Shown: positions 9,316-60,641, counted from the stretch's first letter. The stretch is DNA of 64,000 bases from an uncultured Eubacteriales bacterium (GCA_905201895.1 CAJKPX010000005.1:13504-77503), one strand, 5' to 3'. The notes: a model not told the origin generated them from the letters alone. A program made the numbers and translations.

Positions 9316-9840
9316 TTATTTGGCTTTGACAGGTGAAATCACCATGCTCATAAATCTGCCGTCCAGCACAGGGCGTTTTTCTACAACTCCCGCGCCCGAA
9401 CAAGCCTCCTCAAATCTCTCGAGAACCTCGCGACCGATGTTCATGTGGCTCATCTCGCGCCCCTTGAACTTCATCACAACGCGGACCTTGTTGCCATCAG
9501 CCAGAAAACGCAAAGCGTGCTTGACCTTGGTTTCAAAATCGTGCGTGTCAATGCGGCAGGAAAGCTGGATCTCCTTGAGTTCAACCGTTTGCTGCTTCTT
9601 CTTGGCTTCCTTCTCACGTTTGTCGCGCTCGAAGCGGAATTTACCGTAGTCCATGATCTTGCACACGGGCGGAGTTGCCTGCGATGCCATCATCACCAGA
9701 TCCATTCCCTTTTCATAAGCCATCTCCAATGCTTTGGCAGAGCTCATGATGCCAAGCGATTCGCCGTCGGCACCGATCAAACGCACTTCCTTTGCGTTGA
9801 TCTCCTCGTTGAGCAGGTTTTCTTTGTCTTTCGCGCTAAT
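9316..9840 (-). CDS. infC: Translation initiation factor IF-3, ATT start codon
   Basis: The IF3 N- and C-domains are recognisable. The frame stays open upstream of the first Met as I-S-A-K-D-K-E-N-L-L-N-E-E-I-N-A-K-E-V-R-L-I, and ATT at 9840-9838 lies 8 nt after GGAGG. Confidence 0.9.
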   Translation of the reverse strand: MSAKDKENLLNEEINAKEVRLIGADGESLGIMSSAKALEMAYEKGMDLVMMASQATPPVCKIMDYGKFRFERDKREKEAKKKQQTVELKEIQLSCRIDTHDFETKVKHALRFLADGNKVRVVMKFKGREMSHMNIGREVLERFEEACSGAGVVEKRPVLDGRFMSMVISPVKAK

Positions 9841-9854
9841 AGTTCAACACCTCC

Positions 9855-9998
9855 AAGCGAAAAAAATTAACCGTACAAAGACACAACGTCTCCGCACGGT
9901 TCACCCTCCTCGCGCATTTGCACCAAAAGGAAATGTCGTTATCAACCCGCAGCACAACCGGTGTGCAGGTGAGAGCGGAGCGCTCTGCTTTGTTTTAC
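9855..9998 (-). promoter_or_regulatory. infC-rpmI-rplT leader with attenuator hairpin (L20-leader-like)
   Basis: About 145 nt lie between the consensus promoter and the infC RBS. The leader ends in aaccgt...acggtt plus aattttttt (plus coordinates 9861-9901). This is the known position of the Firmicute L20 leader. Confidence 0.55.
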
Positions 9999-10004
9999 TC
10001 GGTT

Positions 10005-10033
10005 ATTATACCACTCTTCCCCCGATTTGTCAA
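10005..10033 (-). promoter_or_regulatory. SigA-type promoter of the infC operon
   Basis: TTGACA, 17-nt spacer, TATAAT; an exact consensus on the minus strand. Confidence 0.7.
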
Positions 10034-10202
10034 TAGCTTTTCAAAAAATATTTTTAATCTTTTTTCGGCGTTTTCCATTTTTTGGTATGACATGAAATGT
10101 CCATTGACAATTATAACAAAAGATCGCATCTTTTTTGGGGCGAAATTCTACCCTATATGCTTTTTCACAAAAATAATTGCCGATTTTCGTCACTATTGAA
10201 TA

Positions 10203-10231
10203 TTTACAAATCGCTCCGAATTTGGTATAAT
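10203..10231 (+). promoter_or_regulatory. Orphan strong promoter in a gene-free gap
   Basis: TTTACA, 17-nt spacer, TATAAT, with a TGg extended -10 element. No plus-strand CDS lies downstream. Confidence 0.5.
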
Positions 10232-10237
10232 ATTGAT

Positions 10238-10355
10238 TACTGACAGGCAATCGCTTGTCAGGTTCCCCTTTTTTGCACACCACACTCCGTCTTGCGAAAT
10301 GCCAAGCTCATGGCATCCCTGCGCCTGAACGGTCTCGGGTGTGCAATTTTAATTT
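10238..10355 (+). ncRNA. Candidate small structured RNA (unclassified)
   Basis: A 9-bp hairpin at 10240-10261, with a G.U pair that is valid only on the plus strand, is followed by a T6 run. A 71-nt multi-helix hairpin at 10274-10345 is closed by tgcacacc/ggtgtgca and followed by attttaattt. Confidence 0.3.
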
Positions 10356-10382
10356 ATGTAGTAAAAAATTCCAAATTACAAG

Positions 10383-10432
10383 CAAAAAACACGCCATTGA
10401 CGCAAAAAAGCGGCTCAATCGCGTGTTTTTTT
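10383..10432. terminator. Bidirectional terminator downstream of the nucleotidyltransferase gene
   Basis: acacgc...gcgtgt extended hairpin flanked by an A6 run and a T7 run. Confidence 0.65.
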
Positions 10433-10460
10433 CACATTTTCAGCCCATTTCAGACGTTTT

Positions 10461-11345
10461 TCAGAGCTTTTCCGGGTAAATGCCTTTTCTATGCAGAAGC
10501 TGCAGCTCTGCCATCACGGTCTCGCGGTCTGCCTGATAGGTGATACCGAACCAACGGTCATGCGAGGGCTTTGCGCGCACTGTGATACGTTCATCTTCAA
10601 GAAAATCGTTGACCATCACGGGGAGCAGACACTCCGCCTTGATATTGTCGGGAGCGATGCCGCGCAGGAAATCCTCAAAGTATTTGGTCATTTCGTCAAG
10701 AAGCGCGGGATGGAAGCCCCAAATGTTCATCGAAACCATCTCTTGAGGATCAAGTCCGCCGTATTCTCCAACGATACGGTGATCCTCCTCATAGTGAATA
10801 TCGTGCGTTTCGTCAACGCGCCGCAGCTGTCCTCGCTCAATATCGCAGATACCGCGCGTAACGCCTCCGTTCTCACTCATGGTATTGCCGAGGATATAGG
10901 GCACCATGCCTGCCTCGCTCTTGGAAGTGAGGCTCACAAGCATCTCGTGCATGATGCAAAACGCCTCCTTGCCATAGTAATCATCGGCGTTGACGGTTGC
11001 GAAGGGGCCGCGAATGACGTCCTTTGCGCAGAGAACGGCGTGAACCGTTCCAAAGGGCTTTACACGGTCGGAGGGCACCGAATACCACGCAGGGAGTGAT
11101 TGCATATCCTGAACGGCGTAATCGACGCGTACGCGCCCCTCAATGCGGCGTCCGACGCTCTCGCGAACGGTCTCGACCATTTCCTCCTTCAAAATAAACA
11201 CGACCTGCGTAAAGCCTGCCTCGATCGCATCGTGAATTGAATATTCCATTAACATCTCACCGTTGGGACCCACGTGAGAAATCTGTTTATTACCTCCAAA
11301 GCGGCTGCCAAGACCTGCCGCGAGAATGACGAGGGTTGTATCCAT
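10461..11345 (-). CDS. Sugar-phosphate nucleotidyltransferase family protein
   Basis: N-terminal LVILAAGLGSRFGG motif. ATG at 11345 lies 8 nt after GGAGG. Confidence 0.8.
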   Translation of the reverse strand: MDTTLVILAAGLGSRFGGNKQISHVGPNGEMLMEYSIHDAIEAGFTQVVFILKEEMVETVRESVGRRIEGRVRVDYAVQDMQSLPAWYSVPSDRVKPFGTVHAVLCAKDVIRGPFATVNADDYYGKEAFCIMHEMLVSLTSKSEAGMVPYILGNTMSENGGVTRGICDIERGQLRRVDETHDIHYEEDHRIVGEYGGLDPQEMVSMNIWGFHPALLDEMTKYFEDFLRGIAPDNIKAECLLPVMVNDFLEDERITVRAKPSHDRWFGITYQADRETVMAELQLLHRKGIYPEKL

Positions 11346-24754: not shown

Positions 24755-25177
24755 TCAGAGCCCGAGAGCCTCGAGCTCGGCAAGGATCGCGGAAATATCC
24801 TCGCTACCCTTGAGCTTATCGTATTCAACGTCGGACCAGATTTCTGCGTAATCGCAGCATCCGACGAACACCACGTTGCGGTCGATGCCCGCATGATTGA
24901 TCAGTTCCTGCGGAAGAACGATTCTTCCCTGTGAGTCGGGCGTTACCTGAACGAGCGAGGCATGGAGATAGCGGATCACCTTTTCGGAAAGCCGACGGTT
25001 CTGCTCACGCAGAGGCGCCGTGTACTTATCCCAGCCCGCGAGCGAATATGCCTTGAGGCATTTTTCGCGGATATCCTTTGCAATGACGAAGCAACTGCCG
25101 AGCTCGTCGCGCAGCTTGGCAGGAACAAAAATTCGATTTTTCGCATCAAGTGTGTGTCTGAACTCACCGCCAAGCAT
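24755..25177 (-). CDS. mraZ: Transcriptional regulator MraZ
   Basis: MLGGEFRHTLDAKNRIFVPAKLR is a duplicated SpoVT/AbrB-like fold. ATG at 25177 lies 7 nt after GGAGGA. Confidence 0.93.
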   Translation of the reverse strand: MLGGEFRHTLDAKNRIFVPAKLRDELGSCFVIAKDIREKCLKAYSLAGWDKYTAPLREQNRRLSEKVIRYLHASLVQVTPDSQGRIVLPQELINHAGIDRNVVFVGCCDYAEIWSDVEYDKLKGSEDISAILAELEALGL

Positions 25178-25219
25178 ATCGGCATCCTCCATTTCTCTGA
25201 TTTTTCAGGAAAAAGTTCC

Positions 25220-25238
25220 CCACTTTGGCTCCACTTTG
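25220..25238 (-). promoter_or_regulatory. Candidate MraZ operator: two direct CAAAGTGG repeats 11 bp apart
   Basis: The minus strand reads tttCAAAGTGGagcCAAAGTGGgg, between a TTGcgc-17-TATAAT promoter and the mraZ RBS. Confidence 0.45.
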
Positions 25239-25308
25239 AAACATCACGCTCCAAAATGCACCACCGCGTAATAATATTATATACTATTTATCAAAAATGC
25301 GCAAGAGG

Positions 25309-25355
25309 TTTTTTCAAATTTTTTTCATTTTTTTCAACTTTTTTTCGCTTTTTTT
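25309..25355. repeat. Five phased T6-7 tracts (periods 10, 9, 11, 10 bp)
   Basis: T-tracts start at 25309, 25319, 25328, 25339 and 25349, each ending in C. Confidence 0.8.
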
Positions 25356-25405
25356 CGGCGTTTCCGGAAGCGATCCTACAAGCTCCGAAAAAAGAGCTGT
25401 AAAGA

Positions 25406-25434
25406 TTGTAAAATATTTACATTTTTGGTATATT
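25406..25434 (+). promoter_or_regulatory. Helicase gene promoter P1
   Basis: TTGTAA, 17-nt spacer, TATATT, with a TGg extended -10 element. Confidence 0.45.
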
Positions 25435-25494
25435 CGGACAAATTCGGACGCGAATAAACAAAAAAGTTTTTACACAAGAAGTTCCCAAAAATTC

Positions 25495-25523
25495 TTGACG
25501 CGTATTCTAAAATATGGTATACT
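25495..25523 (+). promoter_or_regulatory. Helicase gene promoter P2
   Basis: TTGACG, 17-nt spacer, TATACT, with a TGg extended -10 element, 50 nt upstream of the RBS. Confidence 0.55.
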
Positions 25524-25572
25524 GTTAATAGTATGGACTATTTTTATCAGACCGCGAGAAAGAAGGAGAGAA

Positions 25573-28500
25573 ATGGAACAAAATCGTCAAAATTCGGCAG
25601 AGCTGGAAGAAGCCCTGCTCCGTCTTCGTCAATCCCTCAAGGATCGTGAAAAGCTGAAAACGGGACGCACGCCCCAGATCTGCTCGGATGAATCCATCCG
25701 TGAAATGATCCGCCTGATGCCGCGCAAGCCCTCGGATTTTCTCAGTATTCCGGGTGTTGGGCAGGCTTTTGTTGAGCATTACGCAAGAGATTTTTTGCTT
25801 TTGCTTGCCGAATTCAACGGCTCCGAGGAGGCTCCCGTTTCCAACCGCTCTGTTGAGGAAACGCTGCGCGAGCTCTCTAAAAAGCTGATCAATATCAATC
25901 GCAACAACCGCATGCTGTTCCTGCCCCGTCTTTCCCCGAAAAACGCGGTGGATCTTTTCGATGCGTCGGGCAGCTACAATCCGCTTGACATTCTCTTTGG
26001 TGAGGGCAGCGATCCGATCACGGTTGCCGACGTAACCTCGCAGGATCTCCCTCGCACCGATCCCACGCGCGAGCGCTACCGCAATCTGGTAAGCCTGATC
26101 CGCGAGACCGTGCGTGACATGCGTGACAAGGGTCAGAACGACCTCTACATCGGCTATCCCTTCGTGCAAGGCAACCTGGTCAACGGTGAGTTTGGCGTGC
26201 GTGCACCACTCTGCCTCTTCCCCGTAACCCTCGATCGCAGCACCGCGAACGTCACGGTGCAGGCAGACCCCACGCGCGATATTATCTATAACGGTACGCT
26301 GATTCTGGCACACGATAAATTCAACAGCATCACCACGCCGCTCCCCGATTGCACGGTGGACGAGCTCGATCCCGAAACCTTCCTGCAAAAGCTGCTCGAT
26401 TTCTACAAGGATAACGATATCCGCATCGAATACGACAGCGACGAGCTCAAGAAGTTCAAGGAATACCCCGGAGATTCCTTCCCCCACTACGCTCGAGGAA
26501 CGCTCAAGCTCGTGCACAACATCGTCATCGGTAAATTTCCCGCCTACTCCAACGCGATCCAGCGCGACTTTGACGAAATTCTGGAAAAGGGTTTGGTCAA
26601 CCGCCTGGTATCCGACCTCGTTTCGGACTACGGCGCAACCGATTTCTATTCAGACAACACCAATGCCGAGCTCGAGATCAATCAGCCCGGCAAGAAGCTC
26701 GACATCAGCGAGCACTCGCTGGTCTACATTAACGCCCTCAACAGCGCGCAGGAGGCAGTTCTGCACGCGGCGGAAACGATGAACGAGCTGGTTGTGGAGG
26801 GCCCTCCCGGCACAGGTAAATCGCAAACCATCACCAGCCTGATCACGCAGTTCGTCAACGATGGCAAAACCGTTCTCATGGTCTCCGAGAAAAAGACCGC
26901 GCTCGACGTCGTTTATTCACGCCTGGGCACGCTCTCTCGCTACGCCATGATGATGGACGATGCGAAGAACAAAAATCTGTTCTATTCGCAGCTGGAGCGT
27001 CTGCTTTACAGCACCGATGCAAACGCGCCGATGCAGGCGCCCGATCTCTCGGCACTTTCCACCGAGATCGACACCGACGTGGCAACGCTCGAGATCATTG
27101 CCGATAAGCTCTTCACCCCCGGTGCGTTCGGCGTGGAGCCCTACCGACTCTACATGGAAAGCCGCCGCATCAATCTGCATAACCACGAGCAGATCAAAAC
27201 CTACAAAACCATCCGCGGCATGATGACGCCCGAGCTGCTCGACCTCAAATACGAGGAGGTTGCTGCGATCCACAAGAAATTTGCAAACGGTCAGCTGACC
27301 GACAGCCTGGATCACTATCAGCTCACCATTGAGCGCTATCCGTGGTTCCTGCAAATGAAGGACACGCTCTCGCAATACGATCTGATCCTGTTCTCGGATT
27401 CGATCGACGAGCTGATCCTCAAGGTGGACGAGTGGCGCAATCTGCCCTTCCTCAAGCGCCAGACCTCCAAGGGTCGCCTCTCCAAGGAAATCCAGCTGGC
27501 AACCAAGGATTACTTCAACAAGAACACCGGCGCCTACACCGTTCGTCTGATCATGGAGCAGCCCGAGGCAGTTAAGCAGAGCCTGAAGGAGTTTATCGCG
27601 GGATACGCAAACCTCAAGCCCGTGGTAACGAGTCTGACACAAAGCGAAACCATCTATCTCGCTGCCCTGCGCAAGATTCACAAGATCTGCGGCGGCACCG
27701 TGATTGAATGGAACAACGAGCTCTACAACACCATTCTCTTTGAGCATATTCAGCGCTTCGAGATGGAAAACCGCACGCTTCTGCCGCAGGTTGCCGCATT
27801 TGAGAAGATCATCACCTCAATCGAGCGTGCAATCGGCGAAAAACAGGCACTTGCAAAGCAACGCATCGCAAAGGTGCTTGCAGACGACGTGCAATATATC
27901 ACCGCATCCAAGCGCAAGGGTGAGATCAACCGCGCAATCGAAAGCCGCAGACGCGCGAGCGTTTCCAAGTTTGTCAGAAAGTTCGATTTCGAGCTGTTCA
28001 AGGCAATCAAGGTCTGGCTCATGACCCCCGAGGCGGTGTCCGAGGTGCTTCCGCAGCAGAATGATCTGTTTGATCTCTTGATCTTCGACGAAGCATCCCA
28101 GCTTTACGTGGAAAAGAGTATCCCCTCGATCATCCGCGCCAAGAAGGTTGTAATCGCGGGCGACCACAAGCAGCTGCGTCCCTCGAGCCTGGGTGACGGC
28201 AGATTTGAAATGTCGGAGGATCTGCTCGACGAGGATGCAGAGATTTCCGCAGCACTCGAGGAGGAGAGCCTGCTCGATCTTGCTCGCTTCCGCTATCCCG
28301 ACATTCTGCTCAACACGCACTACCGTTCCAAATACGAGGAGCTCATTGATTTCTCGAACTATGCCTTCTACAAGGGCAGACTCTTTGTTGCTCCCAACAC
28401 CGATACCCCCGAAAAGCCGCCCATTGAGGTGCATCTGGTCGACAACGCCGTTTGGCAGGGTCGCGCAAACCGCCGCGAGGCAGAGCAGATCGTGGCTCTG

Positions 28501-51766: not shown

Positions 51767-52399
51767 TCATTCGGCAGGACGTCGCGCACCCCCGTTGGCA
51801 ATTCCAACAATCGCCGTGACAGACTTGGTGGGTGTCATCAAAAGGCTCTCCGAGAGGGACAGACCGATTCGGCGCGGGCAGTCAAGCATGGCAAAGATAT
51901 CGCGCTGAAGCTCGAGCGGCAGGTCGCCGTAGCCCGGGCTGAAGCGTGCACGCGTAGCTTCGCCGCGAGATGCAGCCTCGGCGGCAAGCTCCTCGCAAAA
52001 AATGTTGCAAAGCAGCTCGACCGATTCGGTTCCGATTGCCTGACAAAGGAGCGCCTGCGCAGGAGACTCGACCGAATAGCGCGCAATGAGACGGTCGAGT
52101 CCTCCCCCCACCGTTGCCGCAAAAAGCACGATGCGATCGCACCCGTCAAGTCGCTTGGCAAGGTCTGCCGACTCGATTTTGGCAAAGTCGAGGTCGAGCA
52201 TGTTGCCATCACGGTGCAGAGGCAGCTCACAGTAGCAGACCCGATTGACCAACCGCCCCCTCACGTCACGCAGCGTTTTTTCCAGAAGCGCGTCCACGCG
52301 CGGATGCCGCTCCCGCATGCCTGCATAACGCAAGATCATGCGCTCGTCGGGGGGGAGCGAGAGGTCATAGGTTCGCGTGATGACCGTTGGTGCCGTCAT
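51767..52399 (-). CDS. Stand-alone methionine synthase activation (reactivation) domain protein
   Basis: About 210 aa with RFSPGYGDLPL and TPTKSVTAIVG motifs typical of the MetH C-terminal domain. It overlaps metF by 4 nt (ATGA). Confidence 0.7.
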   Translation of the reverse strand: MTAPTVITRTYDLSLPPDERMILRYAGMRERHPRVDALLEKTLRDVRGRLVNRVCYCELPLHRDGNMLDLDFAKIESADLAKRLDGCDRIVLFAATVGGGLDRLIARYSVESPAQALLCQAIGTESVELLCNIFCEELAAEAASRGEATRARFSPGYGDLPLELQRDIFAMLDCPRRIGLSLSESLLMTPTKSVTAIVGIANGGARRPAE

Positions 52400-53274
52400 A
52401 CGCCGAGAATATCCGACAGATTGCGTTGGATCGCCGCCGCAACGTCGGGCTTGTTCATCGAATACACGTGCACGTTTGTGATTCCGTTGGCATAGAGGTC
52501 GATGATCTGATCGGTGGCATAGGCGATGCCCGCCTGCTTCATGGCGGCAGGATTGGTGCCGAATTTGTCAACGAGCGCCTTGAAGCGCTGCGGCATGAAG
52601 GAGCCCGAGAGCTTGATCGCGCGCTCCACCTGCTTGCCGTTTGTGATCGGCATCACGCCCGGAATGATCGGAACGGTGATGCCCGCCTCGCGGATCTTAT
52701 AAAGGAAATTATAGAGCAGATTATTGTCAAAAAACATCTGCGTGGTGAGAAAATCACAGCCTGCATCCACCTTTTCGCGCAGATAGCGGATATCCTCCTT
52801 TTGGCACGAGCTCTCGGGATGCACCTCGGGATAGCAAGCTCCTCCGATGCAAAAATCCGCCCCCGATTCGCGCAGCTCTCGCACCAGCTGACAGGCATGT
52901 TGATACGCCCATCTGCTGCGGTCAGCCCCCTCAAGCTCGACAGGAATATCGCCGCGCAATGCCATCACGTTCTCGATCCCCGCCGCGCGGATGTCACGAA
53001 TGCGCTCGGCAACCGTCTCGCGCGTGGAGGAGACGCAGGTGAGGTGTGCCAGGCTCGGCACGCCGTAGCGCTCCTTGATCTCTCTTGCAATGTCGAGCGT
53101 ATACCGACTTGTGCCGCCACCTGCGCCGTAGGTGACGCTCATAAAGGAGGGGCGCAGCTTGGCGATCTCCTCAGTGGCGTGTCTGACGCTTTCAAAATTG
53201 CTCTCGGTTTTGGGCGGAAAGACCTCAAAGGAGAGCGTTATTTTTTCGGATGCAAACAGCTCGGTCAGCTTCAT
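52396..53274 (-). CDS. metF: Methylenetetrahydrofolate reductase
   Basis: LSFEVFPPKT N-terminus and MTHFR barrel motifs. Start moved to ATG 53274. Confidence 0.9.
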   Translation of the reverse strand: MKLTELFASEKITLSFEVFPPKTESNFESVRHATEEIAKLRPSFMSVTYGAGGGTSRYTLDIAREIKERYGVPSLAHLTCVSSTRETVAERIRDIRAAGIENVMALRGDIPVELEGADRSRWAYQHACQLVRELRESGADFCIGGACYPEVHPESSCQKEDIRYLREKVDAGCDFLTTQMFFDNNLLYNFLYKIREAGITVPIIPGVMPITNGKQVERAIKLSGSFMPQRFKALVDKFGTNPAAMKQAGIAYATDQIIDLYANGITNVHVYSMNKPDVAAAIQRNLSDILGV

Positions 53275-53488
53275 GACAAAAATCCTCTCTTGCAGACGCC
53301 CGAAGGATCGCGCACCGACACGGTGACGGAAACACGCTTTTCGGACTTTTTTCGTTTTTATTATAGCACACGCGTCTCCACAAATCAAGTATTTTTCGCA
53401 ACAATCGCCATGTGGGCGGCAAAAAGACAGATGTATGACAATGAAATGAGCAAAAAAATGAAGAGCCCCGCACAAGGCGAGGCAAAAA

Positions 53489-54298
53489 TCATTCGTTCAT
53501 CAATCTTTCAATTTCTTTTCTTTTTTGGGTGTACTCGTAAACGGTTCCTCTGAACCATTTATCTTCAGTAAAATCTTCTTCGAAAGCGTCCATCACCTTT
53601 TGAGCAATTTTGAATTGAGCATTCGCCTTATGGGTTTCACCGATTTCCTTCAAATACATCCCCACAGCAATCAACATATCGAGCAAGACCTCTGCGGAAA
53701 TATTCTTTTGCTTTTGTGCAGCCTCATAGCTATCCTCGCCATCCAATAAGGATGCCATAAGCTCAAGCTTTGTGAAATAGATTTCCGGTATCAGCTCAAG
53801 AGTTGGTCGGATCAAATCATTTTGCCCATTCTCTTTATAGCAGATTGCCAAAATACGGCAGGCATCGTATTTCACCGAATCATCCTTAGTGGATTCAATA
53901 AGCGATTTACAGAGGGTGATCACCTCGTCTGCTCGTGTTTGGTAATCTAATGTATAGAGCAAATTATTCAAAATAATATCGTTTCCCGGAAATCTCTGCA
54001 ATCCTTCTCGTAAAATTTGTTCCGATTTTTCTTCATCGGTGAAGCGATATTGATATGCCTCATGACAGATTGCCTCAACTTGCTTTTCCATTTCAAACAG
54101 ATTAAAGTCAAAGAGTTCATCGGTGGAAACACCGAAGAAGGATGCAATAGCAGGGATCATGATCACATCCGGCATTGTGTTGCCGTTTTCCCATTTTGAA
54201 ACGGCTTGAAAGGATACTCCAAGATAGTTTGCGAAAACCTCTTGGGATATGTTTTTCTGTTTTCTTAAAGACCTGATTTTTTCTCCGAGCTTCATCAT
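53489..54298 (-). CDS. XRE-family HTH regulator with C-terminal helical-repeat (TPR-like) domain
   Basis: HTH_3 motif (IRSLRKQKNISQEVFANYLGVSFQAVSKWENG). ATG at 54298 follows GGAGG. The gene is low in GC. Confidence 0.8.
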   Translation of the reverse strand: MMKLGEKIRSLRKQKNISQEVFANYLGVSFQAVSKWENGNTMPDVIMIPAIASFFGVSTDELFDFNLFEMEKQVEAICHEAYQYRFTDEEKSEQILREGLQRFPGNDIILNNLLYTLDYQTRADEVITLCKSLIESTKDDSVKYDACRILAICYKENGQNDLIRPTLELIPEIYFTKLELMASLLDGEDSYEAAQKQKNISAEVLLDMLIAVGMYLKEIGETHKANAQFKIAQKVMDAFEEDFTEDKWFRGTVYEYTQKRKEIERLMNE

Positions 54299-54448
54299 TG
54301 TTGTTCCTCCAAATCGTGTTGGATCAGCGCTTATCCTGACTCTATTATAGCACATTCCTACCGAAAAACAATAACTCATTTGGAGAGAATTTTTCTAACG
54401 TGGGTTGAAAATAAATTGCCCCGCACGAGGCGGGGCAAAAAATGTTTT

Positions 54449-54781
54449 TTATCGGTACTGATCTAAAATCGTTCTATACGCGGGATTTTTGAGAAGCTCG
54501 GCTCGTCTACCGCCTTTAGCGTTAATACGATAATCAAAATTGTACTTAAAAAAGTTGGCACTTATCGCTTCACCGAAACGGTCAAAGGCGCGATTCAACG
54601 CTTCGTTTTTCTTTCTGAAGTCCTCTGTCTTTTTTGTCACATACAGGTTTTTATCCATAACGGTGATTACTTGTTTGTCTGTTCCATCGCGGTAACAAAG
54701 GTCATTTTCCATTCTTCCAAGGAAGGACCTTGCAAGCATGAGGAAGAATGCTTCTCCCGTTTTCTCAAATGCATTCAGCAT
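54449..54781 (-). CDS. 110-aa protein of unknown function, translationally coupled to the upstream regulator
   Basis: Its start abuts the upstream stop (TAG-ATG). No signal peptide or TM helix. A GC-rich hairpin terminator follows at about 54417-54440. Confidence 0.55.
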   Translation of the reverse strand: MLNAFEKTGEAFFLMLARSFLGRMENDLCYRDGTDKQVITVMDKNLYVTKKTEDFRKKNEALNRAFDRFGEAISANFFKYNFDYRINAKGGRRAELLKNPAYRTILDQYR

Positions 54782-55525
54782 CTATTCCCCGTACTGCACC
54801 GCACGTTCTGCCTTTTCCTCCATTGAGAGAGAAGGATTGAAAAACAAGGTTCTCCCCAGCTTATCTGCCGCAAAATCGACAAGTTCAAACATATTCTTTT
54901 GCACGTGGAAATAATATTCGCTTGTGTCTTTTGCAAACAACTGCTCGGTCTTTTGTCCGCCGGTGGTGTACCAATCGGTAAATTTTGTTTTGTAGATATC
55001 CAGTGCCTCGTCCGTCTTCCCCTCCGCATGAAGAATTTTTGCTCGCATATTCCATGCTCCAAGCCGCAAATTTTCTTCGGTACAGCCTTCCAATATTTTT
55101 CCGCAGATCGCAAGAAATTCATCCTTGTGCGCAATCAAAACAGAGGGATCATTGTCAGCCAGATCACCGCCGATGTTCCACATATAGTAATGCATGATCC
55201 AATAATCATTCGGATAATCGCGGAAAGCCTTGATGATAATTTTTCGCCCTTTTTTGTCATTCCAATGCTGTCTATACAGAGCAATTAGCCCGTCAATTTC
55301 GGCTTGAATCTTTTCTTGATTGTAGCCCATAAGCTCGTCGAGCGTTACTCCAAAGAAATATGCCAAAGGTTGAAGGAGTGTAATATCGGGGTAAGTCTCA
55401 CCTCGCTCCCATTTGCTGACTGCTGCACAGGTGACGTTCATCGCAACCGAAAGCTGCTCCTGTGTAATATTTTTTGATGTGCGCAAACGCTTAATATTTG
55501 CACCAATTGTCATTTCCATAATCAT
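54782..55525 (-). CDS. XRE-family HTH regulator with C-terminal helical-repeat (TPR-like) domain (paralog of 53489-54298)
   Basis: HTH_3 motif (IKRLRTSKNITQEQLSVAMNVTCAAVSKWERG). Three closely spaced ATGs make the exact start uncertain (55525, 55519 or 55513). Confidence 0.8.
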   Translation of the reverse strand: MIMEMTIGANIKRLRTSKNITQEQLSVAMNVTCAAVSKWERGETYPDITLLQPLAYFFGVTLDELMGYNQEKIQAEIDGLIALYRQHWNDKKGRKIIIKAFRDYPNDYWIMHYYMWNIGGDLADNDPSVLIAHKDEFLAICGKILEGCTEENLRLGAWNMRAKILHAEGKTDEALDIYKTKFTDWYTTGGQKTEQLFAKDTSEYYFHVQKNMFELVDFAADKLGRTLFFNPSLSMEEKAERAVQYGE

Positions 55526-55738
55526 ACCCCCATTGAAATAAAAGTAAGCCGACGCCTGCTTCCGGTTATATTATAGCATAAAAACAGGTTCAGTAAAGGT
55601 ATTGTCAGGAAAATCCATATTAACTCATGGTTGAAAAAAGATAGCATTGATATAGAAATATTTACTTCTACTTGCAATATTCTTGTTCTCGCCTGTGAAA
55701 GCCAAAGAACGGAGATGACGTTTTTTTCGATTTTCCGA

Positions 55739-55767
55739 TTGCAAATGCGAGCAAAACATGCTATAAT
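55739..55767 (+). promoter_or_regulatory. Promoter of the dGTPase-like gene
   Basis: TTGCAA, 17-nt spacer, TATAAT. Confidence 0.6.
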
Positions 55768-55799
55768 AGAGCAAAGGAACAGGATTGGAGGCATCGGTT

Positions 55800-57005
55800 A
55801 TGCTCAAGTATGAAAAGCTATCCCCCGAAACGGAGGCGCGCATGCAAAGCGATGCGTTGCATGGCACGCGCCCTGCGATTGCGTTCGATGAGCGAGGCGT
55901 GATCCGTCGCGACAACTCCCGCGATCAGGCGAGCGTTTGGCGCACGGCATTTATCCGCGACATTGACAAAATTCTGCATTGCCCCTACTACAACCGATAC
56001 GCCGATAAAACCCAGGTGTTCTCCTTCTACAAAAACGATGACATCACGCGCCGCGCTCTGCACGTGCAGCTGGTTTCGCGGATCGCACGAACGATCGGAA
56101 AAGCGCTCGGGCTCAACCTCGATCTGATCGAGGCGATCGCACTCGGACATGACATCGGACACACGCCATTTGGTCATGCGGGTGAGAAATATCTCGATCA
56201 GCTCCTTGCATCGCACACGGGGCGGCATTTTTCGCACAACGTCCACTCGGTGCGCGTGCTTGATCGGATCTATCCCTATAACGTCAGCCTGCAAACGCTC
56301 TCCGGTATTGCAAGCCACGACGGCGAGATGGAGCTCGACGAATACCGCCCGCAGCCTCTTGACTCGTTTGAGAAATTTGACGAGCTGATCGAGAGCTGCT
56401 ACCTCGACAAGGCGAACGTGCGCCGACTCGTCCCCTCCTCTCTTGAGGGCTGCGTGATGCGCATTTCGGATATCATCGCCTACCTCGGCAAGGATCGCCA
56501 GGACGCCGAGCGCGCGGGGATCATCTCGGGCAATCCCTTCTCCCCCTGCGAGATCGGGGAACGAAACGCCGAGATCATCAACAACATGATCGTGAACATC
56601 ATCGAGAACAGCTACGGGCACGATTACATCAAAATGGACGAGGTGCATTTTCGTGCACTGTCGCTTGCAAAAGCAGAAAACTACGAAAAAATCTACCTTG
56701 CCCCCGACGTTGCGGCTGAATTTGACGCCACTGTGAAGCCGATGATGACCGAGCTCTACGATCACCTGCTCTCCGATCTGCTCCGAGGGGATCGCACCTC
56801 GCCGATCTTCACGCATCACATTGCCTACGTCAACAAGGCGCACTACGATCGTACGCATCCCTACGAGGAAACCGAGCCCAATCAGCTTGTGGTGGACTAT
56901 ATCGCCAGCATGACCGACGACTATTTCATTGATTTGCACAGGCTCCTGTTTCCGCAGAGTCCTCACCGAATCGAATACAAGGGCTATTTCGGCAGCGAGA
57001 GCTGA
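55800..57005 (+). CDS. dNTP triphosphohydrolase (dGTPase-like HD-domain protein)
   Basis: ATG at 55800 lies 8 nt after GGAGG. Motifs: RTAFIRDIDKILH, HVQLVSRIAR, ALGHDIGHTPFGH. Confidence 0.85.
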   Translation: MLKYEKLSPETEARMQSDALHGTRPAIAFDERGVIRRDNSRDQASVWRTAFIRDIDKILHCPYYNRYADKTQVFSFYKNDDITRRALHVQLVSRIARTIGKALGLNLDLIEAIALGHDIGHTPFGHAGEKYLDQLLASHTGRHFSHNVHSVRVLDRIYPYNVSLQTLSGIASHDGEMELDEYRPQPLDSFEKFDELIESCYLDKANVRRLVPSSLEGCVMRISDIIAYLGKDRQDAERAGIISGNPFSPCEIGERNAEIINNMIVNIIENSYGHDYIKMDEVHFRALSLAKAENYEKIYLAPDVAAEFDATVKPMMTELYDHLLSDLLRGDRTSPIFTHHIAYVNKAHYDRTHPYEETEPNQLVVDYIASMTDDYFIDLHRLLFPQSPHRIEYKGYFGSES

Positions 57006-57216
57006 AGCGCTTCCGAGAGCCCCGTACCAACGAGCAACACAAATAAGAGCCCCGCATGCATCGTGCACACGGAGCTCTTGTTTTGCTTTCAGGAGCCATG
57101 CTTCCTCTCGAAGCAACCAAAAACGCGCTCCAATCGCGTTATGTTCCTGTTTCTCCATTCCGATCAAGAACGCAGAAGGTCTGCCACGTCGGCAGAGTTC
57201 AGAAACGAACGCAAAT

Positions 57217-57681
57217 TCATGCTTTTTTTCTTCCCTTTTTTTGTAATGCGTCAAAAATTTTGTGGTAAACGAGCTGGTTCGGATAATATCGGTAGTCAAC
57301 GAACACCTCAATGCCGCGCCTTGCAAAATGCTGCAAAATCGCGGCGGCACACGCCGCACTGCGACTCTGCCCGTAGTCACATTGACAAATAATGTCCAGG
57401 TGGTCGGCGCGCGCACGGTAGATGAATTCTGCAAGAGCATCTACCTCGGCAAGGTAAGGGTTCTCCGTGCTATATCCGAAATCGGCAAGCAATTCCCTGT
57501 CGATATCGGGAATGCCAACGTAAAAGACACGGGCGTCGGTTTTGGAAAAATCCACGCGACGCTCCTCGCAATCCCGCAAGCCGCGCGGCGTGTAAAAGCT
57601 GATGACCGCCACACGCGCGTCCAAGCCCTGCCGTTGCATGCGCTCCAGAATGGCATTGCGCGAATAAATCTCAAGCTTCAA
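57217..57681 (-). CDS. Predicted phosphatase-like protein with a CX5R(S) signature
   Basis: C-D-Y-G-Q-S-R-S fits C-X5-R-S/T. The start is TTG, 6 nt after GAGGAA. Confidence 0.5.
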   Translation of the reverse strand: MKLEIYSRNAILERMQRQGLDARVAVISFYTPRGLRDCEERRVDFSKTDARVFYVGIPDIDRELLADFGYSTENPYLAEVDALAEFIYRARADHLDIICQCDYGQSRSAACAAAILQHFARRGIEVFVDYRYYPNQLVYHKIFDALQKKGRKKA

Positions 57682-57754
57682 ATTTCATTCCTCGTTTCAA
57701 AAATTCGTTACGGTGAGGGGGTCGCCGACCCGCGGACCCCCTCGGTGCAATGGA

Positions 57755-59014
57755 TCACCCCACCTCAACGGGCGTGAGCGTGCAGCTCTCGCGGATACGC
57801 CTCATATCCGAATAAAGAAGTGTCCCCTTCTTCAACAACTCGCTTGCTACGCGGTCAAGGAAGGTGCGGTTCGATGCAATGATCTCCTTCGCCTTAAAGA
57901 GATAGCGCTCCAGCTCGGCGAAGATCACCTGCTCACGAGAGGACAGGAGCGTGTCCGAATCCTTATCGTGCAGTGCATTCAGATACGAAAGCCCCAGGCT
58001 TCCAACGCTTCCAATGCTCTGGTAGAGGTGCTCACACGCATCATCCAGGTCAGAGCCGGTGCCGCTTGCGATCCGACCGTACTGCATTTCGCTCGCCGCC
58101 TTACCTCCCAGCGCAACCAGAATTTCGTAGGCACGGCGCTCGGGCTCAACGCAACGAAGCATGAAGCCGCCCAGCTTGGAGGAGGTTGAAGAAAGAGAAA
58201 CCATTCCAACGTAGCCCGGGGTAAGCACCTCGGCAATCACCGCGTGCCCTGCCTCGTGATAGGCAATCTCTGCCTTTTTTCCATCGCTGAGATTGACGTG
58301 ATTGTTGTTCACACCGTAAACGTCGGTGAGGGTTGCCTTGACAAACTGTGCCATTCCGATCGCATCGAGGTTCAGAAAACCCGCCTCGATGGCAGCCTCG
58401 TTGATCACACGCTCCAGCGTTGCGCAGGATTTGCCCGAGAGCATCTTTGCAATGTCCTCGTAATTGACGTCCTCCGCCGTTCTGACACCGCTCATATAAT
58501 GCGTGATGATCTTAACTGCCTCCTCTCCCCGCGGGGATTCTACACGAATCCACTTATCAAAACGACCTGCACGCAAAAGCGAATCGGGAATATTGCGGGT
58601 GCTGTTTGCGGTTGCGATGACAAACACGTCCTTTGACGCAACCTTGTCGATGCAACCCTGCACCACGGCAAATTCCTCGCCGTTGTGCTCCTCCATCGAA
58701 AATTTATCGAGATCGTCGAGCAGAAGGATCGACGGCGCGTGCTTTGCAGCCTCCTCAAAGGTTGCCTCGATGTATTCGATAAAGGCACTGCGCTCCATGG
58801 TGTGTCGGATCACCTTGGCAGGCACGCCAACCTCCTCGATCAATGCCGTTGCCAAAAGCGTTTTTCCAACCCCGGGAGACCCGAGCAGAAGCACGCCCTT
58901 GGGCATCTTTGCGCCCAACGCCCGATATTTGGAAAAATTCCTGATCATGTCGGAAACCTGAAAAAGCTCGCGCTTCACGTCCTCGTATCCGATAATCCTG
59001 TCAAATGCACTCAT
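57755..59014 (-). CDS. Cytosolic FtsH-like AAA+ ATPase fused to an M41-type HEAGH peptidase domain (no TM segments)
   Basis: ATG at 59014 follows GGAGAG. Motifs: Walker A GSPGVGKT, Walker B LLLDDLD (DD rather than DE), SRH with RAGRFD, and HEAGHAV. No hydrophobic N-terminus. Confidence 0.8.
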   Translation of the reverse strand: MSAFDRIIGYEDVKRELFQVSDMIRNFSKYRALGAKMPKGVLLLGSPGVGKTLLATALIEEVGVPAKVIRHTMERSAFIEYIEATFEEAAKHAPSILLLDDLDKFSMEEHNGEEFAVVQGCIDKVASKDVFVIATANSTRNIPDSLLRAGRFDKWIRVESPRGEEAVKIITHYMSGVRTAEDVNYEDIAKMLSGKSCATLERVINEAAIEAGFLNLDAIGMAQFVKATLTDVYGVNNNHVNLSDGKKAEIAYHEAGHAVIAEVLTPGYVGMVSLSSTSSKLGGFMLRCVEPERRAYEILVALGGKAASEMQYGRIASGTGSDLDDACEHLYQSIGSVGSLGLSYLNALHDKDSDTLLSSREQVIFAELERYLFKAKEIIASNRTFLDRVASELLKKGTLLYSDMRRIRESCTLTPVEVG

Positions 59015-59096: not shown

Positions 59097-59744
59097 TCAA
59101 ACGGGCAGCCTGACGGTTTGCACGCCCTTGTGCCGAAGCTTATCCGTTGGATAGCTCGCACCGACCGATAGAAAAACCTGCCTGCCAAGCGACGCAAGCC
59201 GATCCAGCCACGGGGAGATGTCAACCGCCTCGTCGATGCGGTCAAAAAGATCAAACAAAAAGATCGGGCGATCGTCATTTTGTATGCGATCAGCGCAAAC
59301 GTGGTCGAGAAAATCCGCAAGACATGCAACGTGTAAGTCGCTTTCGCTCAAAAGAGCATCGCTTGTGCGCCCCTTGTGCTCTGCCGACAAGAGATTTTGT
59401 CCCCCGACGTTGCGCCGCCGCAACCGACGCTGACACTCGATCGTGTCGGCGATCAAGCTGATCCGATCGAGTCCCTCGGCGCTCACTGTGACATAGAAGC
59501 TCTGATCATCGCAAAGCACGCCGTTCCATACGAAGCGCCGTCCGTCGAGCATCAGATCGGCGGAGCAGGAAAAGGTCTGCTTTTTTTCAGGGGCAATCGG
59601 ATCGCACGATTCCCCCGAGATCAACTCGCGCAAAAGCTGCAGATAGACCGACGAGCCACAAACAGCACAGATCGGCGTATCCTCTGCAAAAACCGTTTCG
59701 GGAAACAAATGCGACGTGGTGGAAAAGCGCTGAACTCTCATCAT
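59097..59744 (-). CDS. 215-aa protein resembling a degenerate ABC/RecF-like ATPase fold
   Basis: GGAGAA RBS. P-loop-like AVCGSSVY lacks the lysine. LSESD sits at the signature position. A Walker-B-like PIFLFDLFD is followed by QVFLSV. Confidence 0.5.
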   Translation of the reverse strand: MMRVQRFSTTSHLFPETVFAEDTPICAVCGSSVYLQLLRELISGESCDPIAPEKKQTFSCSADLMLDGRRFVWNGVLCDDQSFYVTVSAEGLDRISLIADTIECQRRLRRRNVGGQNLLSAEHKGRTSDALLSESDLHVACLADFLDHVCADRIQNDDRPIFLFDLFDRIDEAVDISPWLDRLASLGRQVFLSVGASYPTDKLRHKGVQTVRLPV

Positions 59745-59909
59745 GATTATTCTCCTTCTGAATTAAAATGTAAATAGAAACTAAAAAAAGAACGTTTTTG
59801 AGGTCGGGTGATGAAAGTATATCACAATCCGTATACCAAAAATGTCACACATACACCACCTTGAAATGCTTTTAGGAGAATAAAATTGCGAAAGGAATCT
59901 GTTTTTCAC

Positions 59910-59938
59910 TTGACATCCGCAAAAAAAGACGCTATAAT
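59910..59938 (+). promoter_or_regulatory. Promoter of the SGNH hydrolase gene
   Basis: TTGACA, 17-nt spacer, TATAAT; an exact consensus. Confidence 0.65.
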
Positions 59939-59993
59939 GAGTTTGTCGCACATTGAGTTGAACTCACGATGACCGAAAAAAGGAGGTAGGACT

Positions 59994-60641
59994 ATGTTTC
60001 ACGGAAAACGGCTTTCCATTCTCGGAGACAGCATTTCAACTTACACGGGCATATCCAACGATCCAAACGTCAATTCTACGCTCTACGGTCATCCCTGCTT
60101 TTACAGAAAGCCCTTTCCGATCGAGCGTACCTATTGGGGGCGCCTGATGGCGTCGCTCGGACTGGTGCTTTGCGTCAACAACTCGTGGTCGGGCGGCAAT
60201 CTGAGCGGACGGGAGAATTCGAGTGCAGGCGTTAATCGCGCCCACCACCTCTCAACCGACCAAGGCGAGACTCCCGATTTTATCATCGTGTTCATGGGAA
60301 TCAATGATCTTGGGCGCAATGTGCCCGTTGAGACATTTTCCGCCGATTACGAAAGAGTGCTTGCAATGATTGCCAACCGCTATCCCGACGCATGGGTTTG
60401 CTGCGTCACTCTCCCCGATCGCAGCCCTTCGATGAAGAATGCGACCGAGCGCTTCAATCGGGCGATCGGAGATGCCGTTGCAGCTACGGGGGAGCACTTC
60501 TTTATTGCCGATCTCTTTCACAGTTGCCTCAACAACGATTGCTACTACGACAACACCGTGGACGGTCTGCACCCGGATGAGGACGGCATGCGGATGATTG
60601 CAGAGGTGATCGAGGGGGCATTCAGAAAAAAATTCGCATGA
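59994..60641 (+). CDS. SGNH/GDSL hydrolase family protein
   Basis: LSILGDSIS block I, GINDL block III and a DGLHPD block V. AAGGAGG RBS. Confidence 0.85.
   Translation: MFHGKRLSILGDSISTYTGISNDPNVNSTLYGHPCFYRKPFPIERTYWGRLMASLGLVLCVNNSWSGGNLSGRENSSAGVNRAHHLSTDQGETPDFIIVFMGINDLGRNVPVETFSADYERVLAMIANRYPDAWVCCVTLPDRSPSMKNATERFNRAIGDAVAATGEHFFIADLFHSCLNNDCYYDNTVDGLHPDEDGMRMIAEVIEGAFRKKFA

Follow-up and report, generated by a model that had tools for sequence, protein, structure and literature searches.

The DNA considered here is a window of 64,000 nucleotides (nt) from an uncultured Eubacteriales bacterium (GCA_905201895.1 CAJKPX010000005.1:13504-77503), and the subject is an islet of low guanine plus cytosine (GC) content that lies in it between metF and a gene for an HD-domain, dGTPase-like protein, here called HD. 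The islet codes throughout on the minus strand and carries the genes for two putative regulators, termed RegA and RegB, each of which combines an N-terminal helix-turn-helix (HTH) domain of the XRE type with helices resembling tetratricopeptide repeats (TPRs). The low GC content, pointed out in a preliminary description of this DNA, is confirmed. In 300-nt windows GC is 0.37-0.45 within 53250-55800, as against 0.51-0.63 on both sides, and the kilobase of lowest GC in the whole 64 kb begins at 53501, inside the islet. All three open reading frames (ORFs) that can be called in the islet have a GC content of 0.40-0.44 and a GC content at third codon positions (GC3) of 0.44-0.48. The corresponding values are 0.55-0.61 for GC in the flanking genes and 0.59-0.72 for GC3 in metH, orf210, metF, HD, p154 and an AAA protease-like gene, a GC3 gap of approximately 0.2-0.25 between the window copies and their neighbours. 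Further low-GC patches are found in the window at 9501-10999 and 25001-26000 (0.44-0.46 in 1-kb windows) and at 59700-59999 (0.37 in a 300-nt window).

The islet holds two genes, RegA and RegB, and not three. The third gene originally counted, an ORF of 110 amino acids (aa), is the C-terminal third of RegB, in the same frame and split off by a single TAG codon. RegB homologues are single proteins of 353-358 aa (about 356 aa when intact), and where they read QYG(N/K/D/E)-L-MLNAF the window reads QYGE-(stop)-MLNAF, which is consistent with a change from TTG to TAG. In a model of an intact homologue this position falls within helix 233-254 of the C-terminal domain, where the pLDDT is 90-98. The TAG is probably a real allele and not a sequence error, because the exact truncated product of 245 aa is on record on six contigs, including one that comes from a separately named assembly and has 100% identity with the window. 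Among approximately 80 other RegB loci an internal stop is present in one. The nonsense mutation appears to be recent, since the frame beyond it has stayed open and displays no excess of non-synonymous change. The ratio of non-synonymous to synonymous substitution rates (dN/dS) is about 0.02-0.04 for the N-terminal part of RegB and 0.13-0.16 for the C-terminal part, the latter being the same here as between intact homologues; relaxed selection on the orphaned C-terminal part was thus considered and rejected, there being no sign of decay. A reading of TAG as a sense codon was also rejected, as the genuine genes of the window have no in-frame TAG, the homologues have Leu, and the window has no tRNA gene. 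In genome annotation, the ‘110-aa hypothetical protein’ should be treated as part of a regulator cut by a nonsense codon.

The stop codons of the approximately 38 genuine long ORFs of the window comprise 23 TGA, 16 TAA and no TAG. TAG occurs as a ‘stop’ only in the RegB nonsense codon and at the end of a spurious antisense ORF; this looks like a strong stop-codon bias, not recoding. Damaged RegB alleles are also found at other loci, where an in-frame deletion removes the HTH (L142:6001-6130, giving MEMTIGANIK/CSDIDET), or where the gene carries an internal stop (L126) or a frameshift (L153); loss of this accessory regulator seems to be recurrent.

The N-terminal HTH_3 domain is present in both proteins, with E 8.7e-17 and 61.4 bits for RegA and E 2e-12 and 47.4 bits for the N-terminal part of RegB, against a Pfam gathering cut-off of 23. 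The remainder is all-helical in both, as had been proposed, but the C-terminus of about 190 aa ascribed to the two proteins is wrong for the second, in which about 290 aa follow the HTH. RegA is under purifying selection (dN/dS about 0.02-0.04). Its AF2 model (pLDDT 79) consists of the HTH, a long linker helix and ten more helices, and when this model is compared with the PDB by Foldseek, the top 20 matches are dominated by PlcR, ComR, Rgg2 and PrgX, with NrpR also present, in full-length alignments; the best are to PlcR (3u3w, E 8.8e-5; 2qfc, E 7.5e-4). Searches of the PDB with single sequences, or with profiles of close homologues, yield HTH matches only. An exhaustive profile search, however, recovers 112 cluster representatives (at 50% identity) at E <= 1e-30 and 6,421 at E <= 1e-10, and a broad family profile built of 43 full-length sequences matches consensus TPR proteins (9qhb, 2.7e-11, positions 75-236) as well as PlcR, collinearly (2qfc, 6.2e-7, 3-228 against 5-250), and ComR (2e-5). 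TPR_14 is detected in 37 of these 43 members (best 1.4e-8) and TPR_2 in 25 (best 4.9e-8). A longer RegA, extended at its N-terminus (a 296-aa ORF from 54379), was rejected; the added stretch takes in the -10 box, and in the orthologous locus L086 a stop codon closes it.

The model of an intact RegB homologue (pLDDT 86) begins with the HTH and about three TPR-like pairs, continues with four long helices (200-302) and closes with short helices at the terminus. A recognizable TPR motif lies at about 154-177, and TPR_14 is found in 33 of 34 family members. The extra C-terminal long-helix domain has no match to any RRNPP structure, and the fold search found no viral structural match. The suggestion that the two proteins are reminiscent of RRNPP-type regulators therefore fares differently for each. 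The structure and profile comparison of the C-terminal domains places RegA nearest to PlcR, ComR, Rgg2 and PrgX, with TPR-like repeats, so that an RRNPP-like architecture is supported for RegA at the level of predicted fold and family profile; for RegB, with PlcR at E 0.02, it is weakly indicated.

A published five-point signature of RRNPP receptors includes a length of 250-500 aa, a TPR hidden Markov model (HMM) match at E < 1e-5 that covers the model well, an adjacent propeptide gene of 10-100 aa at -60 to +400 nt, and a Sec signal or an SHP-like propeptide (PMC10075063). RegA (269 aa) and the intact RegB homologues (353-358 aa) lie within this length range and the truncated RegB of the window (247 aa) just under it; both regulators have the HTH, and TPR models match at the level of the family only, not the window proteins alone. 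Both flanks of each gene were scanned (-60 to +460 nt), and among the ORFs of 10-100 aa none joined a Shine-Dalgarno sequence to signal-like features, in agreement with the earlier remark that no credible peptide ORF adjoins either regulator. One hydrophobic ORF of 35 aa (53385-53492, minus strand), which overlaps the RegA stop codon (ATGA), was considered as a propeptide and rejected. It has no Shine-Dalgarno sequence and no basic N-terminus, it runs through the terminator and 80 nt past it, and it is not conserved, the RegA orthologue stop being TAA with no overlapping ATG. It is annotated as a gene in one public assembly and is most likely spurious. RegA and RegB thus appear to be orphan RRNPP-like regulators without a linked peptide. 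NCBIfam, PHROGs and PADLOC give matches limited to the HTH; in a test against PADLOC defence regulators, the match to RmrA is confined to this domain (positions 1-132 of 394, E 5.9e-10).

Each gene of the islet appears to be a transcription unit of its own, made up of an upstream inverted repeat, a promoter of the sigma-A type with a TG-extended -10 box, a leader that contains a palindrome of 16-18 nt and a Shine-Dalgarno sequence, the gene and a GC-rich terminator (Table 1). For RegB, the upstream regions of 36 family members, down to 44% protein identity, preserve a constant order of elements: T[TC]AAC-N5-GTTAA; TTTCC..ACAAT.CCTTTAC, which includes the -35 box; TGnTATAAT; GAAGCAGACGTCGGCTTC; and GGAGG. 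In the distal palindrome all 36 sequences have AAC...GTT, with covariation of the outer pair (CG 17, UA 8, UG 5), and in the leader palindrome two symmetric positions covary (GC 24 / AU 9; AU 21 / GC 9 / GU 3). The covariation score of the palindromes is 0.183 as against 0.116 in shuffles, none of 500 of which reach it, and is far above that of slid controls. As the distal palindrome is not transcribed from the RegB promoter, it is constrained at the DNA level. The leader palindrome could be either a second operator or an RNA hairpin, as the G-T intermediates fit both. An Rfam scan of 52900-56100 returned nothing at E <= 1.

The layout upstream of RegA parallels that of RegB, with different sequences (TTCAACC-N3-GTTAGAA, TGTGCTATAAT, GGATAAGCGCTGATCC). 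The distal repeat is kept in orthologous loci L002-L005 and L086/L087, though the sequence further upstream is unrelated, and the leader palindrome is invariant in all RegA orthologue loci read while the neighbouring bases vary. In the orthologues of both genes conservation extends from about 130-150 nt upstream of the start codon to the terminator, and the flanks beyond are unrelated. Conservation of these features within a self-contained unit suggests autoregulation. The four neighbouring promoters, those of metF, RegA, RegB (55569-55580) and HD (55759-55771), all have a TG-extended -10 box of the form TGCTATAAT, and those of RegA (foreign) and HD (native) have an identical 13-mer, TGCTATAATAGAG, in common.

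The near-identical hairpins noticed at the outset are both present (53465-53483 and 54418-54436), and each has the score of an intrinsic terminator; a search of the window at <=3 mismatches, with 0.13 matches expected, finds these two and no others. The second of them ends RegB, however, not a third gene. GCCCCGCCTCGYGCGGGGC is the terminator-hairpin sequence of the RegA and RegB cassettes, and of the 20 loose matches to the consensus CCCCGCCTCG[CT]GCGGGG in the 1.95 Mb of DNA retrieved, 14 come immediately after a RegA or RegB homologue. An identical hairpin of 17-19 nt follows proteins of the RegA and RegB types, which are only 26% identical. The hairpin is, on this count, specific to RegA and RegB cassettes and not a general terminator of these genomes.

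The setting of the islet becomes clear when the window is aligned with its closest relative. By HD protein this is represented, after contigs identical to the window, by contigs L200/L201 (87% identical), in which metF and HD are directly adjacent across an intergenic region of 283 nt. Synteny is kept, with PALP, metH, orf209 and metF on one side and HD, the AAA/M41 gene and the HAD gene, among others, on the other, and the flanks have approximately 79-80% nucleotide identity. Homology stops at ...CAAATCAAGTATTTTT (about 53396) and restarts at TTTTCCGATTGCAAA (about 55731), the low-GC segment of the window standing in place of about 58 nt of the metF-HD intergenic region. Both host promoters are retained and the borders fall cleanly between them. 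The regulators are missing not only from the metF-HD site of the closest relative but also upstream of metF in 80 other metF loci from related species (0/80). The contigs found to carry the exact RegA, HD or other flanking proteins are all identical to the window and add no further strains.

The composition of the family bears on the same question. At 48 RegB loci the GC3 of the gene tracks host GC with a slope of about 1.05 (r about 0.6), the copies in high-GC hosts being themselves high in GC (GC3 0.71-0.81, with L135, L152 and L154 at 0.77-0.81); RegA and RegB homologues in general lie slightly below host GC, by a mean difference of 0.024. The copies of the window can be regarded as true compositional outliers because the GC3 of the RegB family follows host GC and the family is not intrinsically AT-rich. 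Horizontal acquisition, already proposed on grounds of composition, is now supported by the empty site, by the 80 metF loci and by the outlying GC3. The segment appears to be an acquired insertion in the divergent metF / HD promoter region of a human-gut Clostridia bacterium, the relatives of which are labelled Eubacteriales or Acutalibacteraceae. As stated before, neither an integrase nor border repeats are found, in window scans or in the alignment of the junctions. A target-site duplication of about 45 nt at the junctions was rejected, the local alignment of the two junctions scoring 15 against a shuffle mean of 13.6.

Table 1. Features of the islet and its borders in the 64-kb window.
Feature	Position	Strand	Basis or remark
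RegA, 269 aa, intact: XRE-HTH (residues 8-62), linker helix, 10 helices (five TPR-like pairs)	53489..54298	-	Pfam HTH_3, AF2, Foldseek, family profile
RegA extended -10 promoter TGTGCTATAAT	about 54343..54354	-	kept upstream of RegA orthologues in three other contexts; repeat family D3
RegA distal imperfect inverted repeat TTCAACCCACGTTAGAA, upstream of -35	54393..54409	-	candidate operator/activator box
RegA leader palindrome GGATAAGCGCTGATCC, between -10 and Shine-Dalgarno	54321..54336	-	7/8 positions symmetric
RegA intrinsic terminator hairpin GCCTCGCCTTGTGCGGGGC + T-run	53465..53483	-	repeat family D1
RegB frame, 357 codons: XRE-HTH/TPR-like + C-terminal long-helix domain	54449..55525	-	read-through translation; homologues; model of intact homologue
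RegB N-terminal part, 247 aa (245 aa as called)	54782-55525	-	
RegB C-terminal part, 110 aa	54449-54781	-	
In-frame TAG, ATG directly after	54782-54784	-	Leu in all homologues
RegB promoter TTTACT, 16-nt spacer, TG-extended TATAAT	55570..55597	-	consensus scan; kept in 36 family upstream regions
RegB distal palindrome TTCAACCATGAGTTAA, upstream of -35	55620..55635	-	family consensus T[TC]AAC-N5-GTTAA; candidate operator/activator box
RegB leader palindrome GAAGCAGGCGTCGGCTTA, between -10 and Shine-Dalgarno	55545..55562	-	family consensus GAAGCAGACGTCGGCTTC
RegB intrinsic terminator hairpin TTGCCCCGCCTCGTGCGGGGCAA + T-run	about 54416..54438	-	
Inserted low-GC segment, about 2.33 kb	~53397..55730	.	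empty-site alignment (L200/L201) + GC profile
metF (MTHFR)	52396..53259	-	Pfam MTHFR E 1.8e-82; synteny in 80 loci; first gene of conserved metF-orf210-metH operon
metF extended -10 box	53359-53370		outside insertion; promoter retained in empty site
HD-domain dGTPase-like gene	55800..57005	+	Pfam HD + HD_assoc; NCBIfam and PADLOC dGTPase models
HD promoter	55739-55767		outside insertion; promoter scan + empty-site alignment

Taken as a whole, the locus is best explained as an acquired insertion of two cassettes for orphan, autoregulating HTH-TPR regulators, RegB having undergone a nonsense change, and a probability of about 0.6 may be placed on this explanation. Each regulator would bind its own palindromic box or boxes as a dimer and so control its own expression, and would also control unlinked targets, whilst the repeat domain may sense a ligand or partner that is not encoded beside the gene, as in the orphan receptor RstA of Clostridioides difficile. 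RegB would be made here at best as a 247-aa HTH/TPR fragment, possibly together with a re-initiated fragment of 110 aa.

Several observations weigh against this explanation. At the level of the proteins, the RegA model is weaker after residue 170, with pLDDT 43-78 in the last third, and its structural matches are weak (TM 0.24-0.45, rmsd 9-17 A); the profile match to PlcR (32 bits) is not above the HTH-only matches, and the HTH may supply much of its score. Taken alone, both RegA (TPR_14, E 0.18) and RegB (TPR_14, E 0.0075) fall under the Pfam gathering score, and the top PDB match of RegB in Foldseek, PlcR at E 0.02, is not significant (TM 0.23-0.31). The leader palindrome may act as RNA, or a different factor may bind the palindromes, and overlapping data may underlie the assemblies in which the RegB TAG recurs. 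As regards acquisition, the insertion has no flanking direct repeat; no recombinase is found in the 64-kb window by tblastn or among the annotated neighbours within 6 kb; and no recent donor was found, dS (the synonymous component of dN/dS) to the nearest sampled homologues being 0.8 to >2.5.

The side-by-side arrangement of two alike regulators had at first been put down to tandem duplication following acquisition. A recent duplication of one acquired regulator would account for the shared architecture, the shared promoter layout and the terminator hairpins, which are 85% identical over 34 nt, but it is refuted by the proteins themselves and by their orthologues. Over 170 aa RegA and RegB are 26% identical, chiefly within the HTH; similarity past the HTH is barely detectable, and hhalign, though it gives a probability of 99.2% over 168 columns, covers residues 1-180 only. 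RegB also carries some 110 additional residues. Each has far closer orthologues in other genomes, 81-86% identical for RegA and, for RegB, up to 94% identical in the N-terminal part and 87% over the full length. RegA orthologues occur in at least four contexts, including beside a sigma-70-like gene (L002-5, L205/6), or a TauE gene (L086/7), and between genes for lysine aminomutase and carboxyltransferase (L207). Those of RegB occur singly in many different contexts, RegB homologues being accompanied at times by more distant paralogues (L129-131, L154, L164, L169). In about 100 loci examined, RegA and RegB orthologues are never adjacent to one another. Because lone orthologues, at 86-94% identity, carry the same promoter and terminator features in other genomes, those features predate the locus, and the hairpin is a family trait and not the mark of a duplication. 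RegA and RegB are, by all appearances, ancient paralogues that now lie side by side. It is also decidedly improbable that an old locus was passed on vertically and lost by deletion in the closest relative, its low GC being held by selection on the genes. The high dS to all sampled homologues and their tendency to lie slightly below host GC would suit such a history; against it stand the 80 metF loci without regulators, the high-GC copies in high-GC hosts (GC3 0.71-0.81), the GC3 gap between the window copies and their neighbours, and borders placed cleanly between two retained host promoters. A canonical RRNPP quorum-sensing module with an overlooked peptide gene, to which the HTH and TPR architecture, the fold matches to PlcR, ComR, Rgg and PrgX and the 35-aa ORF called in one assembly might be thought to point, is very improbable. 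The flank scan yielded no suitable ORF; the 35-aa ORF lacks a Shine-Dalgarno sequence, crosses the terminator and is missing in orthologue loci; and the flanks of the orthologues, which are unrelated beyond about -150 on one side and the terminator on the other, leave no room for a conserved partner gene.

How such units move is a separate matter, on which the RegB family offers some hints. Of 82 loci with RegB homologues (0.54 Mb), 6 have a large serine recombinase gene a few kb away at most, as against none of 80 metF loci (1.1 Mb); examples are at L001:36-1319, L095:4201-5346, L110:8328-10836 and L088:10221-11156, the first two directly upstream of the RegB homologue. L128:5850-6130 and L146:3780-5300 have RegB homologues with a break at one and the same site, codon ~39-40 (AAVSKWER/GETYPD). 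The remaining gene in L128 begins about 40 nt past the stop codon of a large serine recombinase gene, and in L146 the promoter and codons 1-40 lie 80 nt downstream of the gene, in inverted orientation. It would seem from this that serine recombinase elements use the RegB gene as a target for integration or inversion. A unit of 1.3 kb, made up of 255 nt of upstream sequence and a RegB-homologue gene, also recurs at 94-97% nucleotide identity across human-gut contigs whose flanks do not align (L105, L106, L110, L112, L114, L115, L117, L120, L125, L094). Its left and right flank types assort independently (L100, L101) and tRNA genes often adjoin it; the motif GTATCGCGCCGCCGAAAAAGATATC marks its left end, in this subgroup only, and recurs downstream in L110/L112.

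From these hints it might be supposed that integrative mobile elements left the islet genes behind or brought them in as cargo, the products being ImmR-like repressors with a sensor domain that belong to large serine recombinase elements, which is possible if on balance unlikely. The enrichment of recombinases, the common break point, the 1.3-kb cassette in unrelated flanks of human-gut metagenomes and the presence of the HTH of ICEBs1 ImmR among the better HTH matches all agree with it. However, 76 of the 82 RegB loci have no recombinase, the RegA loci have none and sit among ordinary metabolic genes, the window and its annotated neighbours are likewise devoid of one, and 2.9 million viral contigs hold no full-length relatives; moreover, RegB genes may simply be integration targets or lie in tRNA-rich hotspots. 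Phage origin was itself rejected, given the result with viral contigs and the absence of a viral fold match. A rather unlikely extension is that operator-promoter, gene and terminal hairpin form autonomous regulator cassettes spreading singly among gut Clostridia, with the hairpins as recombination substrates or by hitch-hiking on serine-recombinase elements that target RegB codon ~40. In its favour are the unit in unrelated flanks, the shared hairpin, the recombinase enrichment near RegB and the common break point. If true, the islet would be two cassettes caught in one intergenic spot, and orphan RRNPP-like regulators would have a mode of transfer not described before. Gene cassettes of the integron type (a promoterless ORF with attC, beside an IntI tyrosine recombinase and attI) were considered in view of the conserved palindrome at the end of each unit and rejected, as each unit has its own promoter, no recombinase was found among the neighbours or by tblastn, and a hairpin with a T-run is a standard terminator.

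The acquired pair of orphan regulators can be compared with several known systems. The HTH-5TPR branch of the RRNPP(A) receptors, which are cytoplasmic and bind peptides, has a published core architecture (PMC12700828). RegA resembles PlcR, Rgg, ComR and PrgX in its XRE HTH (PF01381), long linker helix and approximately five TPR-like pairs within 269 aa, and these proteins provide its best PDB matches, PlcR and ComR also being collinear with the family profile. RegA and RegB differ from them in having neither an adjacent propeptide gene nor an RRNPP-specific match in Pfam or NCBIfam, in the sub-threshold TPR HMM matches and, for RegA, in the low TM values of 0.24-0.45; RegB has about three TPR-like pairs and, in addition, four long helices that make up a C-terminal domain. 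In its position upstream of the -35, the palindromic box here recalls that of PlcR. RstA of C. difficile is a clostridial HTH and TPR regulator, an orphan with neither an adjacent peptide ORF nor an assigned ligand, which autoregulates via an imperfect inverted repeat at its own promoter (PMC6414698). It offers the closest functional analogy for a self-contained orphan unit. By its published description it has, however, additional domains, one Spo0F-binding-like and one quorum-sensing-like, and its inverted repeat overlaps the -10, whereas the RegA and RegB palindromes lie upstream of the -35 and in the leader. The Qsr/Qss RRNPP-type regulators of solventogenic clostridia comprise multiple paralogous XRE-HTH/TPR regulators per genome (PMC7376267, PMC7206700), and tandem paralogue clusters are likewise seen around RegB homologues (L129-131, L154, L164, L169), but each Qsr has an adjacent small peptide gene and none was found beside RegA or RegB. 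ImmR of ICEBs1 is similar in the sequence of its XRE HTH, and some RegB homologues lie near recombinase genes at element ends; in contrast, ImmR is small and without a TPR domain, and the window has no recombinase, ImmA-like protease or element genes.

Some features of the flanks may be added. Gene content on the HD side (55800-59014 in the window; L200:8255-13034) varies and has a flavour of defence, with matches of the HD protein to the PADLOC dGTPase model (E 6.5e-45) and of the AAA/M41-like protein to IetA (1.6e-17). In L200 the HD side has extra genes, for a TIR_2 protein and for proteins of 335 and 153 aa, which in the window are absent or replaced by a 154-aa gene (57217-57681). On the other side, the metF leader (53260-53358, minus strand) is GC-rich, runs to about 100 nt and could form hairpins, and it has no Rfam match at E <= 1; that of L200 is of similar length and different sequence.

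The locus is in itself an ordinary accessory insertion of a known kind of regulator. It does provide a clean, datable case in which regulatory genes were added to the genome of a gut commensal, with both the filled and the empty site in hand. It also draws attention to a large, uncharacterised HTH-TPR family in gut Clostridia, RRNPP-like but with no linked peptide, which numbers 112 clusters (50% identity, E <= 1e-30) and thousands of more distant members. For this family the conserved palindromes are concrete operator candidates, with which it may be asked what the orphan receptors sense.

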